From Escherichia phage MLF4: 64,000 nt of DNA. Both the position numbers and the translations under genes were made by a program. Every line of letters begins with the position of its first letter. The first letter of the stretch is position 1. The notes under the pieces are model-generated. The model was not told where the DNA came from. It searched no databases and saw only the letters and a list, made by a program, of their open reading frames with translations. Positions 17,558 to 63,737 of this stretch are shown here, one piece after another. Where the stretch lies: sequence record NC_055780.1. One strand, given 5' to 3'.

Positions 17558-17759
17558 CCTCTCCGGATTCTTGGAAGAAATACCTGAAGTTGAAGCTATT
17601 CCCTATTTACTTAAAATGTATCTCAGGGAAGTTTTAGCTCTTGACATTGATATTGATCCAGAAAATCCGTATGATACCGCTTTTAAATCTAATGGTGTAG
17701 AATTAAACTATCGGTATCATTTAACAGATGATGATTTTTATTTTATATTAGAGAAATAA
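17541..17759 (+). CDS. hypothetical protein (72 aa)
   Basis: ORF overlapping 3-prime end of gene 55 by 17 nt. Confidence 0.35.
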
Positions 17760-33780: not shown

Positions 33781-35208
33781 GTGGTAGAAATTATTCTTTC
33801 TCATCTCATATTTGATCAAGCTTATTTTTCAAAAGTTTGGCCATATATGGATTCAGAATATTTTGAAAGTGGTCCAGCTAAAAATACATTCAAATTAATT
33901 AAATCCCATGTTAATGAGTATCATAGCGTTCCATCTATTAATGCGTTAAATGTTGCATTAGAAAATAGTTCATTTACTGAAACGGAATATTCTGGTGTAA
34001 AAACACTTATTTCAAAACTAGCCGATTCTCCAGAAGACCACAGCTGGTTAGTAAAAGAAACAGAAAAATATGTTCAGCAAAGGGCGATGTTTAATGCTAC
34101 ATCTAAAATAATTGAAATTCAAACTAATGCTGAGCTTCCTCCGGAAAAACGAAATAAGAAAATGCCGGATGTTGGTGCTATTCCTGACATCATGCGTCAA
34201 GCATTATCAATTTCATTTGATAGTTACGTTGGTCATGATTGGATGGATGACTACGAAGCACGTTGGTTATCTTATATGAATAAAGCTCGTAAGGTTCCAT
34301 TTAAACTCAAAATTCTAAATAAAATTACTAAAGGCGGAGCTGAAACTGGAACACTGAATGTTTTAATGGCTGGTGTTAACGTTGGTAAGTCATTAGGATT
34401 GTGTTCATTGGCAGCAGATTATTTGCAGCTCGGACATAATGTTCTTTACATTTCCATGGAAATGGCAGAAGAAGTCTGTGCTAAACGTATTGATGCTAAT
34501 ATGCTTGATGTTTCTCTTGATGACATTGATGATGGGCATATTTCTTACGCTGAGTATAAAGGAAAAATGGAAAAATGGCGTGAGAAATCTACTCTCGGTC
34601 GTTTAATTGTTAAACAGTACCCTACTGGTGGGGCAGATGCTAACACATTCAGGTCTCTCTTGAATGAATTGAAGCTCAAAAAGAATTTTGTTCCAACAAT
34701 CATTATTGTCGACTATCTAGGTATTTGTAAATCTTGCCGCATTAGAGTTTATTCAGAAAATAGTTACACAACTGTTAAAGCTATTGCAGAGGAATTGCGT
34801 GCTCTTGCTGTTGAAACCGAAACTGTTCTTTGGACTGCAGCGCAGGTCGGCAAACAAGCTTGGGATTCTTCTGATGTTAACATGAGCGATATTGCAGAAT
34901 CTGCCGGTCTTCCAGCAACAGCCGATTTTATGCTTGCGGTCATTGAAACCGAGGAGCTAGCAGCTGCTGAACAACAACTCATTAAGCAAATCAAATCACG
35001 ATATGGCGATAAGAACAAATGGAATAAGTTTTTGATGGGTGTTCAAAAGGGAAATCAGAAATGGGTAGAAATTGAACAAGATTCTACTCCAACTGAAGTG
35101 AACGAAGTAGCAGGTTCACAACAGATACAAGCTGAGCAGAATCGCTATCAAAGAAATGAATCCACTCGAGCTCAGTTAGATGCTTTGGCAAATGAATTAA
35201 AATTTTAG
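33781..35208 (+). CDS. 41: replicative DNA helicase gp41 (DnaB-like)
   Basis: 475 codons, GTG start; MVEIILSHLIFDQAYFSKVWPYMDSEYF..., Walker A GVNVGKS; recognised as T4 gp41. Confidence 0.9.
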   Translation: MVEIILSHLIFDQAYFSKVWPYMDSEYFESGPAKNTFKLIKSHVNEYHSVPSINALNVALENSSFTETEYSGVKTLISKLADSPEDHSWLVKETEKYVQQRAMFNATSKIIEIQTNAELPPEKRNKKMPDVGAIPDIMRQALSISFDSYVGHDWMDDYEARWLSYMNKARKVPFKLKILNKITKGGAETGTLNVLMAGVNVGKSLGLCSLAADYLQLGHNVLYISMEMAEEVCAKRIDANMLDVSLDDIDDGHISYAEYKGKMEKWREKSTLGRLIVKQYPTGGADANTFRSLLNELKLKKNFVPTIIIVDYLGICKSCRIRVYSENSYTTVKAIAEELRALAVETETVLWTAAQVGKQAWDSSDVNMSDIAESAGLPATADFMLAVIETEELAAAEQQLIKQIKSRYGDKNKWNKFLMGVQKGNQKWVEIEQDSTPTEVNEVAGSQQIQAEQNRYQRNESTRAQLDALANELKF

Positions 35209-35768: not shown

Positions 35769-36062
35769 ATGAAAAAATTTATTTTTGCTACAATTTTTGC
35801 TTTAGCTTCTTGTGCTGCTCAGCCTGCTATGGCAGGTTATGATAAAGATTTGTGTGAATGGTCTATGACTGCGGATCAGACTGAAGTTGAAACTCAAATT
35901 GAAGCAGATATTATGAATATCGTTGAGCGCGATCGCCCTGAAATGAAAGCTGAAGTGCAAAAACAGCTTAAGTCTGGTGGTGTAATGCAGTATAATTATG
36001 TTCTGTATTGCGATAAAAACTTTAATAACAAAAATATCATCGCTGAAGTGGTAGGTGAATAA
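35769..36062 (+). CDS. sp: Spackle periplasmic protein (superinfection exclusion / lysozyme inhibitor)
   Basis: 97 aa with signal peptide MKKFIFATIFALASCAAQPAMA; position and size match T4 sp (gene 61.3). Confidence 0.7.
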   Translation: MKKFIFATIFALASCAAQPAMAGYDKDLCEWSMTADQTEVETQIEADIMNIVERDRPEMKAEVQKQLKSGGVMQYNYVLYCDKNFNNKNIIAEVVGE

Positions 36063-36688
36063 TGCTCTATCAAATGCACAAGTGCAAAGATACATACAAA
36101 TATAAAGGTGCCCAGTGTTATATCATTAATCGTGAAAACGCGGGTCCAGGTCATTCGCATCAATCACGGTTTGTATTCGTTAAAAACAATGAAATTATAG
36201 CAGTTGCTAATTACATGCTTGTGACTAATGATGTTAATCCGGTGCCTTTTACATATTATAATCTAATGGATTTGGCGTACGATTATAATTGGTTTAATCA
36301 TGACACTTTGGCTCATATCGAAGGCGTAGGATTTGACATCTCTTATTCTAGTTACTCGTTGTGTCCTATGAGCCGAGCTCATAAAGAGCCTGAATATTTT
36401 TCATTTCGTCGGCGTGTAGACTTTAAACGCAGCACAGAGTATGTCGGTGGAATATTTGTTAAAGATAATCGAATTACTCGCATTATTTATCCTTTGGGCT
36501 GTGGTCAAAAAGATATTGATGTTGATTTAGACTTTACTGAAAACATCATTAATCATATTGCTTCTGTATATTTTGATATTGATCACAAAATTGTAATATG
36601 TGGATATGAATTACCATCAGAAAAACAGTCTAAAGTAAATGTTTCTATTGATGACCAAATTTTTAATGCTTTTATGAATAGAGGTTAA
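36062..36688 (+). CDS. hypothetical protein (208 aa)
   Basis: ORF in the 61.x interval. Confidence 0.5.
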   Translation: MLYQMHKCKDTYKYKGAQCYIINRENAGPGHSHQSRFVFVKNNEIIAVANYMLVTNDVNPVPFTYYNLMDLAYDYNWFNHDTLAHIEGVGFDISYSSYSLCPMSRAHKEPEYFSFRRRVDFKRSTEYVGGIFVKDNRITRIIYPLGCGQKDIDVDLDFTENIINHIASVYFDIDHKIVICGYELPSEKQSKVNVSIDDQIFNAFMNRG

Positions 36689-36856: not shown

Positions 36857-37885
36857 ATGTCATCAATACCTTGGATTGATAATGAGTTTGCATACCGTGC
36901 ATTAGCTCATTTACCTAAATTCACACAAGTAAATAATAGTTCAACTTTTAAATTGCGGTTTAGATGCCCTGTTTGTGGAGATTCAAAAACCGACCAGAAT
37001 AAAGCTCGTGGATGGTATTATGGTGATAATAATGAAGGAAATATTCATTGTTATAACTGTAACTATCATGCACCAATTGGAATATATTTAAAGGAGTTTG
37101 AACCTGATTTATATCGTGAGTATATCTTTGAAATAAGAAAAGAAAAAGGTAAAAGTCGTCCAGTAGAAAAACCTAAAGAACTTCCTAAACAACCTGAGAA
37201 GAAAATAATTAAATCTCTTCCGTCATGTGTTCGATTAGATAAACTGGCGGAAGACCATGCAATTATAAAATATGTAAAAGCTCGTTGTATTCCAAAGGAT
37301 AAATGGAAATATCTTTGGTTTACAACCGAATGGCCTAAATTAGTTAATAGCATAGCACCGGGAACATACAAAAAGGAAATTTCTGAGCCTCGTCTTGTTA
37401 TTCCAATTTATAATGCTAATGGAAAAGCTGAGTCTTTTCAAGGACGTGCATTAAAGAAAGATGCTCCTCAAAAATATATCACCATCAAAGCTTATCCTGA
37501 GGCAACAAAAATCTATGGAGTCGAACGAGTTAAAGATGGTGATGTATATGTTCTAGAAGGACCTATAGATTCACTTTTTATTGAAAATGGTATAGCTATT
37601 ACGGGTGGTCAATTAGACCTAGAAGTTGTTCCATTTAAAGATAGACGAGTGTGGGTTTTAGATAATGAACCTCGTCACCCTGACACTATCAAGCGAATGA
37701 CTAAATTAGTTGATGCAGGAGAAAGGGTTATGTTTTGGGATAAATCTCCCTGGAAATCAAAAGATGTTAATGATATGATTAGAAAGGAAGGTGCAACCCC
37801 TGAACAAATTATGGAATATATGAAAAATAATATTGCCCAGGGGTTGATGGCTAAAATGCGGTTATCTAAATATGCTAAGATTTAA
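36857..37885 (+). CDS. 61: DNA primase gp61
   Basis: 342 codons; N-terminal zinc ribbon CPVCGDS...CYNCNYH, Toprim-like core; recognised as T4 gp61. Confidence 0.9.
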   Translation: MSSIPWIDNEFAYRALAHLPKFTQVNNSSTFKLRFRCPVCGDSKTDQNKARGWYYGDNNEGNIHCYNCNYHAPIGIYLKEFEPDLYREYIFEIRKEKGKSRPVEKPKELPKQPEKKIIKSLPSCVRLDKLAEDHAIIKYVKARCIPKDKWKYLWFTTEWPKLVNSIAPGTYKKEISEPRLVIPIYNANGKAESFQGRALKKDAPQKYITIKAYPEATKIYGVERVKDGDVYVLEGPIDSLFIENGIAITGGQLDLEVVPFKDRRVWVLDNEPRHPDTIKRMTKLVDAGERVMFWDKSPWKSKDVNDMIRKEGATPEQIMEYMKNNIAQGLMAKMRLSKYAKI

Positions 37886-38082
37886 ATTAACCCAACTAAA
37901 GCAAATGCTAAATCTACGAATGTATCAAGAGTAACTACTGGAATATTAATACCATGTGCAATTGCAATAGGTGATAGAATAAAGTTCCAGAGTAAAATTC
38001 CTACCATAGCAGAAATAGTAAAAGCTATACGTTTTTTATTACCTTTTATGGCATTAACAAGTGCCATTAATTTTTGTACCAT
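37882..38082 (-). CDS. hypothetical small membrane protein (66 aa), antisense to the surrounding operon
   Basis: Minus-strand ORF with strong SD (AAGGAGGACATATG), two hydrophobic segments; stop overlaps gene 61 stop by 4 nt. Confidence 0.4.
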   Translation of the reverse strand: MVQKLMALVNAIKGNKKRIAFTISAMVGILLWNFILSPIAIAHGINIPVVTLDTFVDLAFALVGLI

Positions 38083-38094
38083 ATGTCCTCCTTA

Positions 38095-38119
38095 TTGCTT
38101 TATATATTTATTGTATAAT
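38095..38119 (+). promoter_or_regulatory. T4-type middle promoter for gene 56 (MotA box TTGCTTTA + TATAAT)
   Basis: MotA box, 11-bp spacing, TATAAT. Confidence 0.5.
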
Positions 38120-38153
38120 TAATCTACTAACCCATGAATTGAAAGGAAAAATA

Positions 38154-38672
38154 ATGGCTTACTTTAATGAATGTGCTCATTTGATCGAAGGTGTTGATAA
38201 AGCAAATCGTGCATATGCTGAGAATATTATGCACAATATTGACCCACTGCAGGTTATGCTTGATATGCAGCGGCATTTACAGATTCGTTTGGCTAATGAT
38301 AAACCAGAAACAAATCGTCATCCTGATTCACTTGAAACTGCAGGAGAAGTTCTTGCTTGGTTGCGAAACCAAGACGATTATATCGCAGATGAAACTCGCG
38401 AACTATATACTTCTCTTGGTGGTATGAGTAATGGTGAAAAAGAAGCTTCTGCTGTATGGAAACCTTGGAAGAAACGTTATTCTGAAATGCAATCCAAGAA
38501 AATTCAAGATTTATCTCCCGAAGATCAGCTTGAAATTAAATTTGAACTGATTGACCAATTTCACTTTTTCATGAATAAATTTATTGCTCTTGGAATGTCA
38601 GCTGAAGAAATCTTTAAACTTTATTACCTGAAAAATGCTGAAAACTTCGCTCGTCAAGACCGAGGTTATTAA
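38154..38672 (+). CDS. 56: dCTPase / dCTP-dCDP pyrophosphatase gp56
   Basis: 172 codons from ATG with SD GGAAAAATAATG; MAYFNECAHLIEGVDKA...EEIFKLYYLKNAENFARQDRGY recognised as T4 gp56; track start 38061 rejected as over-extended. Confidence 0.85.
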   Translation: MAYFNECAHLIEGVDKANRAYAENIMHNIDPLQVMLDMQRHLQIRLANDKPETNRHPDSLETAGEVLAWLRNQDDYIADETRELYTSLGGMSNGEKEASAVWKPWKKRYSEMQSKKIQDLSPEDQLEIKFELIDQFHFFMNKFIALGMSAEEIFKLYYLKNAENFARQDRGY

Positions 38673-38875
38673 TGGCTCGTTTAAATAAGCGTCAGCTTAA
38701 GAAAGCCCATAAGAAACGTATTGACCAGCTATTTAAAGATTATAACAAGGAGCTCGTATGTGAGCTCTTATCTAATCAGCTTCGCAAAGCTTACATAATT
38801 AAAACTGGGCATATACCATTAGGCAAGTGGGTACATGAAGAAGCCTTAAAATTAATTATAGAGCATTCAAAATGA
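38672..38875 (+). CDS. hypothetical basic protein (67 aa)
   Basis: ATTAATGG overlap with gene 56 stop. Confidence 0.4.
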   Translation: MARLNKRQLKKAHKKRIDQLFKDYNKELVCELLSNQLRKAYIIKTGHIPLGKWVHEEALKLIIEHSK

Positions 38876-39081
38876 AATTTAATTTTTATGCATGGCAAAA
38901 AGCCGGGAGACCGGCTAGTCGAGCATTTGGTTCTGATGGATATAATATTAGAGCCCATTGGAAATTTAATGCTCCAGACGATTATTCTCCGGTAATTATT
39001 AACGGCGATGTTGTTATATTAACTAAAATTGGGTATTTTAACGTTCCGCGAGAATTTATTATAAATAATCATGTAATTTAA
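38872..39081 (+). CDS. hypothetical protein (69 aa)
   Basis: ATGA overlap with upstream stop. Confidence 0.4.
   Translation: MKFNFYAWQKAGRPASRAFGSDGYNIRAHWKFNAPDDYSPVIINGDVVILTKIGYFNVPREFIINNHVI
39060..39067 (+). promoter_or_regulatory. T4 late promoter (TATAAATA) for soc
   Basis: Exact TATAAATA about 30 nt upstream of the soc ATG. Confidence 0.55.
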
Positions 39082-39097: not shown

Positions 39098-39343
39098 ATG
39101 GCTAGTACTCGCGGTTATGTTAATATTAAAACATTTGAGCAAAAATTAGATGGAAATAAGAAAATTGAAGGAAAGGAAATTTCCGTAGCTTTCCCTCTTT
39201 ATTCTGACGTTCACAAAATTTCTGGTGCTCATTACCAGACATTCCCTTCAGAAAAAGCAGCATATTCTACAGTATATGAAGAAAATCAACGCACTGAATG
39301 GATTGCTGCAAATGAAGATTTGTGGAAAGTAACTGGTGAATAA
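39098..39343 (+). CDS. soc: small outer capsid protein Soc
   Basis: 81 codons; MASTRGYVNIKTFEQKLDGNKKIEGKEISVAFPLYSDVHKISGAHYQTF... recognised as T4 Soc. Confidence 0.92.
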   Translation: MASTRGYVNIKTFEQKLDGNKKIEGKEISVAFPLYSDVHKISGAHYQTFPSEKAAYSTVYEENQRTEWIAANEDLWKVTGE

Positions 39344-49582: not shown

Positions 49583-49954
49583 ATGTTTAAAATCGGTAAG
49601 AAGTATCGTATTCGCAAAGGCGAAGAAAAGAAATATCTAATGTCTGCTATTTATAGGAATGGTTCTATTAATGCTGTAATATCTACAAACGAATTTATCG
49701 TTGAAGATATGAAAGGTCATAATGTTACAATGATTAGTACAGCATCCGGAAATGATGGAAAAATTCTTCACAGTTTTCAGAGTAATGTTCTAATTTATGA
49801 TGAAGAATTTGACTTCTTCGAAGAAGTCACAGAAGATTTTGATTTTGAATGCACTATTACCATGAAATCTGGCGACCCTCTTTCTTTTACAGTTAAAGAT
49901 GAAAGAAGTCGCTTGAGAATTATTAGTCTTCTTCAAGCCATTAAATTTGAGTGA
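49583..49954 (+). CDS. hypothetical protein (123 aa)
   Basis: SD AAGGATAATTATG. Confidence 0.4.
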   Translation: MFKIGKKYRIRKGEEKKYLMSAIYRNGSINAVISTNEFIVEDMKGHNVTMISTASGNDGKILHSFQSNVLIYDEEFDFFEEVTEDFDFECTITMKSGDPLSFTVKDERSRLRIISLLQAIKFE

Positions 49955-60956: not shown

Positions 60957-60966
60957 GGAATAAATA

Positions 60967-63048: not shown

Positions 63049-63705
63049 TTATTTAGCCCTTCCTAATATTCTGGCCGCCTGAGCACATATTGATTCAAGG
63101 CGGTCATTACTTATATGATCATTTCTATACCAGTACATGGTTATCGTTCCAGCATAGATATTATCCAAATTAAAATATGGACAACTGTACATGTAGTTTA
63201 TTTCGGGAGTAGGCTTTTTAGTTGGTAAAAAAGCAAATTTTGAGTTGGAATAATAATGACGTCCATTTAAATGAACTGCATATTCATCCATAGTTTTATC
63301 AACAGGATATCCTCCAAGTGATTTTTCACTTATTGTTGAAGGTAATTTTCCTTCATATGCTATAATATCGACAAAATAGTTTAAGTTTTTAGGGCGGAAA
63401 GAATACACCGCACTAAAGTCTGCCTCAGATGATATGTGAACTATCTGGAGTTGTTCCAGGGCGACAGATTCAAAGCGTGCATTTCTTTCCTTTTCAATAA
63501 TTTCACTGTATGTTTCATACTTTGATTGCTTATAGTACTCAAAGAAACTATCTCCCCTATACCAAACAATCGCCATCATAAACAAAAGAACTACGACAGC
63601 TACCCGGGAAGCAAGAACTTTCCCGGTAGCGTTATCTTTGAACAAGCGATCTAGAACACCAAATAGAATATCAGAGGGCGAAAATGATATTCTAGGTGCT
63701 GCCAT
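63049..63705 (-). CDS. t: holin T
   Basis: 218-aa minus-strand product MAAPRISFSPSDILFGVLDRLFKDNATGKVLASRVAVV... recognised as T4 holin; SD AAGGAGGGTCTATG. Confidence 0.9.
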   Translation of the reverse strand: MAAPRISFSPSDILFGVLDRLFKDNATGKVLASRVAVVVLLFMMAIVWYRGDSFFEYYKQSKYETYSEIIEKERNARFESVALEQLQIVHISSEADFSAVYSFRPKNLNYFVDIIAYEGKLPSTISEKSLGGYPVDKTMDEYAVHLNGRHYYSNSKFAFLPTKKPTPEINYMYSCPYFNLDNIYAGTITMYWYRNDHISNDRLESICAQAARILGRAK

Positions 63706-63737
63706 AGACCCTCCTTTTAAGGATATTTATTCAAAAA

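Follow-up and report, generated by a model that had tools for sequence, protein, structure and literature searches.

The T4 gene products closest in kind to the small membrane protein described here are holin T and a group of accessory proteins of the inner membrane and periplasm. Holin T (class III) has a cytoplasmic N-terminus, one transmembrane (TM) helix, and a periplasmic C-terminus, and genetically the t and e genes suffice to explain T4 lysis. Like the 66-aa gene that we analyzed, t is transcribed against the early direction and has an AATAAATA promoter variant with a strong Shine-Dalgarno (SD) sequence, the promoter lying 18–22 nt upstream of ATG in the two genes. The predicted topology of the 66-aa protein also matches that of holin T. 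The two differ in that holin T is 218 aa long, with a large periplasmic domain (PF11031), while the 66-aa protein has ∼24 periplasmic residues, and we detected no sequence or profile similarity between them. Imm, Sp, RI, and RIII offer a second comparison, as small, non-essential proteins of the inner membrane or periplasm that are encoded in plastic accessory regions of T4. The genes for Imm and Sp lie on the early strand and belong to the early/middle class, whereas the 66-aa gene has a late-type promoter. Late promoters are known for T4 gene 49, soc, and holin t.

The window, the 64,000-nt stretch of Escherichia phage MLF4 (NC_055780.1) that we analyzed, corresponds to the early region of a T4-type phage genome, in which + is the early strand. 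Open reading frames (ORFs) of at least 100 aa number 66 on the + strand and seven on the − strand, and holin t (63049..63705, −) is the sole convincing gene among those seven. The neighborhood of the 66-aa ORF is almost wholly +, with the order 41 (33781..35208), dmd, 61.4, sp (35769..36062, 1.8 kb from the ORF), 61.2, 61.1, 61, gene 56, two small ORFs, and soc (39098..39343). Within it, the first-pass annotation had reported a 66-codon ORF on the − strand, and the product that it quoted is exact. The ORF occupies 37882..38082 (−), stop codon included, between a convergent neighbor, gene 61 (DNA primase; 36857..37885, +), and a divergent one, gene 56 (dCTPase; 38154..38672, +). Its stop codon overlaps that of gene 61 by the 4 nt described earlier, 37882..37885, and the SD that had been called textbook is AAGGAGG at 38093..38087 (−), 4 nt (ACAT) before an ATG whose A is position 38082. 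The start codons of the ORF and gene 56 are 71 nt apart, and the gap between them is the empty "dam slot" of this phage.

The ORF is an already catalogued, uncharacterized Tevenvirinae gene that is present in T4 itself; hundreds of genomes list it as a hypothetical protein. A PHROG scan of the 66-aa protein returned phrog_2024 (E = 1.4e-31; residues 2–66 against profile positions 1–65 of 65), a family annotated as "unknown function," and no further family up to E = 1. The exact window protein is already present in public records (UniRef), where it falls in the same 90% cluster as dam.1 of T4T (ADJ39749); the UniRef entry for T4 reads "Uncharacterized protein dam.1." Elsewhere the gene is named RB32ORF030w/RB14ORF31 or RB69ORF029w, the RB14 annotation reading RB32ORF030w, "similar to RB69ORF029w." The Tequatrovirus copies (dam.1/RB32ORF030w) are 94–100% identical to the window copy, equal to it in length, and share with it the site convergent to gene 61, the 4-nt stop overlap, the SD, and an upstream ATAAATA. 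Relative to T4, four residues differ (62/66 identical), which is no material difference from dam.1.

Searches beyond the family were negative. The window protein had no Pfam match up to E = 10, NCBIfam had no match for the family, and PADLOC, whose models cover anti-phage defense and counter-defense, matched neither the window protein nor three distant members. Foldseek with an AF2 model found no match in the PDB and, in BFVD, no structures beyond its own family; a 66-residue helix-loop-helix cannot discriminate among folds in such a search. Literature searches by gene and family name, and others on ribosome profiling or unannotated ORFs in T4, turned up no paper about the gene.

We asked whether the gene is linked to the state of dam. 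The first-pass annotation stated that T4 carries dam between 61 and 56, saw no Dam-like ORF in the window, and proposed that dam had been replaced at this junction by a new convergent membrane gene whose transcript would be antisense to the gene 56 promoter and leader. The two observations hold. Dam is absent from the window, as the best tblastn match to T4 Dam has E = 1.9 and no long ORF contains a DPPY-type motif, and in T4 dam does sit between the small ORF and gene 56. A gap of merely 71 nt between the start codons also fits a replacement. However, T4 has both genes: NC_000866 leaves 309 nt between dam and 61 without annotation, and there the ORF is found again, identical at 62/66 aa and overlapping gene 61 by 4 nt as in the window. 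The annotation had itself suggested looking for this antisense ORF in T4, and finding it there essentially disposes of the replacement. The T4T record annotates the T4 copy as dam.1, and the T4 RefSeq record NC_000866 leaves it unannotated. Nor is the ORF confined to dam-less loci, as T4, T4T, and fPS-65 all carry it together with dam, which in the last is one of two cargo genes, and three other genera combine the ORF with an empty slot.

Counts across public records agree. The ORF was found in 693–872 phage records overall. By tblastn, 693 records carry it at any identity and 501 at ≥80% identity, which gives ∼500 Tequatrovirus records. Megablast (≥80% coverage) found the dam-less 61–ORF–56 junction of the window in 322 records, and the T4 dam gene occurs in 184. 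Because 322 dam-less plus 184 dam records come close to the 501 ORF records, the empty slot is the majority Tequatrovirus state, at about 64%; we judged dam status from this partition (322 + 184 vs ∼501) together with the search of the window. The compact arrangement, with the ORF start 66–88 nt from the gene 56 start, also occurs in Mosigvirus, Gaprivervirus, and Jiaodavirus. Where the slot is filled, its content varies: dam in T4, a 186-aa nuclease-like ORF plus dam in fPS-65, mobE in VR5, a 75-aa ORF in Q7622, and three small ORFs in the metagenomic locus L023. In an alignment of the window, T4, and fPS-65, the left-side homology stops directly after the SD of the ORF and returns ∼20 nt ahead of the start codon of gene 56. 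Thus, the conserved small gene anchors the junction; dam, like the other cargoes of the slot, is optional and independent of it. By parsimony, the empty slot is probably the ancestral state. With the putative − strand start falling in the spacer of the gene 56 promoter and pointing away from gene 56 (see below), replacement of dam by a new gene is scarcely credible, while we hold with high confidence that the ORF is a coding gene independent of dam.

Conservation of the ORF extends far beyond Tequatrovirus. Orthologs of 60–69 aa convergent to the primase gene are present in at least eight Tevenvirinae genera, and the ORF, SD, and ATG are kept in Tequatro-, Mosig-, Gapriver-, Dhaka-, Kanagawa-, and Jiaodavirus, in Gelderland/Moon/Karam-type phages, and in a metagenomic T4-like contig. 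The frame was open, with its SD and ATG, in each T4-like locus that we examined, and a comparison of seven genera found the GGAG(G) motif at an unchanged position in each. The gene lies convergent to gene 61 and upstream of gene 56 in T4, RB14, Shf125875, and VR20, and likewise in Q7622, KP1, VR5, and L023. Between genera, pairwise Nei-Gojobori estimates gave dN/dS of 0.11–0.46 and dS of 1.1–4. Since synonymous sites are saturated, yet the protein is still alignable and dN/dS is low, the 66-aa ORF is under purifying selection.

The conserved residues form a family signature. Across 29 diverse members, W32, N33, P38, and G44 show no variation and A40 and P48 hardly any, while the N-terminus varies among subfamilies. 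The signature, W-N-x4-P-x-A-x3-G-x3-P-x3-L-(D/E), occurs in hydrophobic proteins of 52–74 aa; in the window protein it reads W32, N33, P38, G44, and P48, followed by L52-D53. A profile search of 1.84 billion representative proteins recovered only 17 clusters, of which 16 contain proteins of 45–70 aa, the exception being a marginal match (E about 1e-3) to a 445-aa protein. Several of these clusters carry the motif in non-T4 contexts. Three siphovirus-like contigs have a homolog directly after an Endonuclease VII gene, among tail genes; one distant homolog is at a prophage end, beside host genes, and another lies ahead of a RelA/SpoT-domain gene. In non-T4 phage contigs, the distant members are co-oriented with late or structural genes. 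In IMG/VR, all 13 loci were T4-like, and scans of genome contigs for further distant members found none, two family alignments being too divergent to seed such a scan. As homologs occur in unrelated phages, conservation of the ORF is not a mere by-product of the gene 61 strand. Judged from these sequence comparisons, the ORF is a protein-coding gene under purifying selection, convergent to the primase 3′ end. The earlier view that a small hydrophobic product is genuinely encoded here is thereby upheld.

The start signals of the ORF point to late expression. On the − strand, a putative gp55-dependent late promoter, AATAAATA, the variant with A at −13, lies at 38112..38105, 22 nt upstream of the ATG. 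T4 late promoters, which depend on gp55, gp33, and gp45, need no −35 element and have a TATAAATA-type box roughly one turn of the helix ahead of the transcription start. The 8-bp TATAAATA box constitutes the entire promoter, and A at −13 is its commonest deviation, found in nine of 50 T4 late promoters (PMC2988020). Orthologous loci retain the element: ATAAATA is found 12–22 nt upstream of the annotated ATG in 21 of 21 T4-like loci and is kept though the flanks differ, whether the upstream DNA is gene 56, dam, or other cargo. At −13, most genera depart from TATAAATA, having A, G, or C, which counts against the assignment; G and C are rarer than A at this position among accepted T4 late promoters. 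Five non-T4 contigs lack ATAAATA, as expected for phages without gp55.

Chance is a poor explanation for the motif. ATAAATA occurs seven times in the window against about 40 expected (5.7-fold depleted) and TATAAATA twice against 10.4 expected, and four of the seven ATAAATA sites stand just upstream of an SD and ATG. The distance to the ATG is 29 nt for AATAAATA at gene 49 (Endonuclease VII), 30 nt for TATAAATA at soc, and 18 nt for AATAAATA at holin t, compared to 22 nt for the 66-aa ORF. The ORF thus has a TATAAATA-type element that is conserved in orthologous loci and improbable by chance, and the gene is likely to be transcribed late and dependent on gp55. We infer that the putative late transcript starts near 38098. 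For the T4 copy (NC_000866 17738..17938, clockwise), the predicted start is ∼6–7 nt downstream of GATAAATA, at about 17,720–17,725. In the proposed scheme, RNA polymerase with gp55 would transcribe the gene late in infection from its own AATAAATA promoter and the ORF would be translated from its strong SD. A T4 RNA-seq/proteome study counted only the features of NC_000866.4, which omit the 66-aa ORF (PMC9697503). Thus, read counts per NC_000866 feature, as in that study, cannot see the gene.

The 66-aa ORF and its upstream region share their DNA with signals for the opposite strand. Upstream of gene 56 is a middle-promoter-like element (38096..38119, +) consisting of the box TGCTTTA (38096..38102), an 11-nt spacer, and the −10 sequence TATAAT (38114..38119). 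We take it to be MotA-type because it fits the T4 middle-promoter consensus, which is well established; in fPS-65, a "predicted middle promoter" is annotated at the corresponding site ahead of gene 56. The − strand late-promoter motif is located inside the 11-nt spacer of this element. With a − strand start near 38098, upstream of the gene 56 −10 box, the two promoters would be back-to-back and divergent. The first-pass annotation had the small transcript lying opposite the middle promoter and leader of gene 56; this part is not supported, as the predicted − strand RNA leaves the gene 56 leader uncovered. Instead, this RNA would lie opposite gene 61, being complementary to the 3′ end of that gene and to its 3′ UTR.

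On the gene 61 strand, a hairpin followed by a T-run resembles an intrinsic terminator (38048..38077, +; 8-bp stem, loop of 4, tail TAATTTTTGT) and lies inside ORF codons 2–12. It is annotated as a terminator in fPS-65 and likely forms the 3′ end of the 41–61 transcripts. If these transcripts end there, almost all of the 66-aa ORF would have its complement in their 3′ UTR. On the − strand, we found no terminator within 580 nt after the ORF, so a late transcript would continue antisense into gene 61.

These signals allow a reading in which the ORF is untranslated and its conservation comes from the gene 61 3′ UTR and terminator or from a late antisense RNA that down-regulates primase mRNA. The hairpin inside the ORF and the run of a late transcript into gene 61, which follows from the 580 nt free of a − strand terminator, both suit such a role, and there are sites in T4 where the two strands are known to be transcribed at different times (PMC2988020). 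However, the hairpin is present in T4, RB14, and fPS-65 and absent from other genera. As it is limited to Tequatrovirus, it is a secondary feature, and the embedded terminator is ruled out as the cause of ORF conservation. The frame, the SD, and the amino-acid motif, in contrast, persist across genera in which synonymous change is saturated, and unrelated phage contigs encode homologs with no primase gene opposite them. An untranslated ORF is therefore very improbable. An antisense effect on gene 61 could arise as a by-product of the late transcript of a coding gene.

We next considered the protein. Its hydropathy peaks over residues 19–41, and the AF2 model (mean pLDDT 75, built on 29 sequences) has helices at 2–13, 16–42, and 52–63. 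Residues 1–18 include five basic and no acidic residues, while residues 43–66 contain two aspartates and one histidine and end in the hydrophobic and acidic sequence …DLAFALVGLI. By the positive-inside rule, this charge layout places the N-terminus in the cytoplasm and the C-terminal ∼24 residues in the periplasm. We consider it quite probable that the product is a bitopic membrane protein, and it is predicted to be an N-in/C-out inner-membrane microprotein. In this model, a basic N-terminal amphipathic helix (residues 2–13, net +5) would face the cytoplasm, a single TM helix would span about residues 16–42, and a short acidic amphipathic helix (52–63) would sit on the periplasmic side. The conserved residues concentrate in the predicted periplasmic loop and in that half of the TM helix nearest to it. 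Of the tryptic peptides of the protein, LMALVNAIK alone has a convenient size, and the remainder is a single hydrophobic peptide of 48 residues, which would explain why shotgun proteomes lack the protein.

Could the protein be a holin or pinholin? The ortholog from OE5505 has been named so by its submitter and UniProt (P0025/A0A482MZV5, "Holin"). The protein is small with a TM segment, its late-type promoter is identical in form to that of holin t, and its predicted N-in/C-out topology with a single TM helix resembles class III holins. Against this, no holin profile matched significantly (best, GTA_holin_3TM, E = 0.03, in three of 17 members), and the C-terminus is hydrophobic and acidic instead of basic and hydrophilic, the basic cluster being N-terminal. 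No endolysin gene adjoins in any T4-like locus, where the neighbors are the primase and dCTPase genes. The window already encodes a T holin and, since t-defective T4 fails to lyse by established genetics, a second autonomous holin would be unexpected. In the distant contigs, lysozyme genes are 1.5–3.5 kb away from the homolog and on the other strand. We also considered a lysis-cassette context for the distant homologs and rejected it, as the following gene matches a "minor tail protein" PHROG and not an endolysin. With profile, charged C-terminal tail, and endolysin linkage all failing, an autonomous holin is unlikely, and we give the holin or pinholin designation very little weight.

A related possibility is a membrane-active toxin that the complementary gene 61 3′ UTR silences early and that is released late, in the manner of a type I toxin-antitoxin system. 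The product is indeed small and hydrophobic, and gene 61 transcripts ending at 38048..38077 would complement all but the first ORF codon. However, a 66-aa protein with a conserved periplasmic-side motif is unlike type I toxins, which have 19–50 aa, and the geometry of the overlap varies: an intergenic hairpin occurs in KP1 and a gap of 200 nt in VR20, and the siphovirus contexts are different again. Moreover, the late promoter would already provide temporal control. These points leave a silenced toxin highly improbable.

Another likeness concerns the TM helix itself. E of phiX174 and type I toxins have a functional TM proline, and the 66-aa protein has the invariant P38 and the polar N33 in its TM helix. 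By this analogy, P38 and N33 suggest binding to a membrane-protein target, though the proteins show no homology and differ in orientation and charge layout. Because the conserved motif is on the outer side and homologs occur in unrelated phages, a host envelope partner is more likely than a T4-specific protein.

The protein may therefore be speculated to act as a non-essential accessory at the inner membrane late in infection, where it would affect lysis timing, envelope integrity, or exclusion. Any specific role in the envelope or lysis, for which topology, timing, and analogy form the basis, is one that we hold with low confidence at most. The heterogeneous contexts of the distant homologs (an Endonuclease VII neighbor, a prophage end, a RelA/SpoT-domain neighbor) count against such role inference. 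A more detailed proposal makes dam.1 an overlooked late gene of T4 and of nearly all enterobacterial T4-like phages. Its inner-membrane product would use the WN-x4-P…G…P…L(D/E) motif to contact some component of the host envelope and so tune lysis timing, lysis inhibition, or exclusion; this proposal is rather doubtful. Taken as a whole, a late membrane gene, independent of dam, whose product would serve as an envelope accessory is the explanation toward which we lean.

Together, our results reveal a gene that is conserved in at least eight Tevenvirinae genera and yet missing from NC_000866, the reference record of T4. The dam-less state is the commoner one among T4-type phages, and the junction in the window is mostly ordinary. 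Close to oriA, the 66-aa gene and gene 56 bound a clean hotspot of insertion, and these anchors, now defined, should be useful for comparing T4-like genomes. The conserved late-promoter motif provides a concrete and cheaply testable prediction, and both the predicted late expression and the predicted membrane location are well supported. If the proposed role is true, the 66-aa protein would join the classic lysis/envelope network of T4 as a new member.

The late-promoter core ATAAATA, present ahead of the small minus-strand ORF that encodes the predicted membrane protein of the dam.1 family, is strongly depleted on both strands of the whole window, with 7 sites found and approximately 40 expected. 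For TATAAATA, 2 sites were found over the same sequence, with 10.4 expected. Four of the seven ATAAATA sites lie immediately 5′ of a Shine-Dalgarno sequence (SD) and ATG, and these belong to gene 49 (11360), the small ORF (38105), soc (39060), and t (63724). The holin gene t and its upstream motif occupy 63049..63731 (−), at the window's right-hand end, and its 218-aa product matches the T holin family (PF11031, E=1.6e-116). Upstream of t, AATAAATA (63731..63724) is followed by 18 nt to the ATG, including a AAAGGAGGG SD. Both the promoter variant and the layout are identical between t and the small ORF.

Core sites also occur without this arrangement. At GATAAATA (36483..36491, −), which lies within gene 61.2 on the opposite strand, and at AATAAATA (60959..60966, +), an ATG follows directly with no leader. 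Separately, a perfect TATAAATA is found at 49648..49655 (−) within a plus-strand gene (49583..49954), with neither an SD nor a sizeable ORF downstream. It may act as a late promoter in the antisense direction, or it may have survived by chance.

We also compared the surroundings of small ORF homologs in other genomes. In three siphovirus-like contigs that are not T4-type (L022 3260..4210, L024 4279..5213, and L026 4272..5159), the homolog shares its beginning or end with the stop codon region of a gene for an Endonuclease VII-like protein, the two overlapping there. Ahead of the latter gene is one for a protein of 94-98 aa that has a TM helix at its N-terminus as well as a coiled coil. This module is recurrent and sits amid tail genes. 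At locus L025 (129..1383), the homolog is 59 aa long, and 17 nt downstream of it lies the gene for a RelA/SpoT-domain protein of 352 aa, which has a match to the PADLOC candidate defence model PDC-S33 (E=2.4e-17).

In Gaprivervirus VR20, the family is represented twice in direct succession, the second copy (L005 2259..2399; L016 3259..3399) lying on the gene 61 side of the first. This second copy belongs to the Dhakavirus type. Its N-terminal part is in a different frame, which makes it look like either a pseudogene with a frameshift or what remains of an allele exchange.

In Yersinia phage fPS-65 and similar phages, the slot that carries dam also contains, directly upstream of dam, a 186-aa ORF (L029 1341..1901, −) with a D…EIK (PD-(D/E)xK-like) motif. 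This ORF is perhaps a mobile element, or else a nuclease that partners dam. The T4 arrangement looks like the product of a deletion that removed this ORF between short ATCRCAAA repeats. On the other side of gene 56, the interval to soc (38672..39081, +) contains two small ORFs of 67 and 69 aa in the window, while T4 carries the homing endonuclease gene segF in their place. The first of the two is of the type annotated as ncORF029c in RB14, and the Shf125875 annotation names the two ORFs 'T6 soc.2' and 'soc.1'. The gene 56-soc interval is a second indel polymorphism, adjoining the dam slot.
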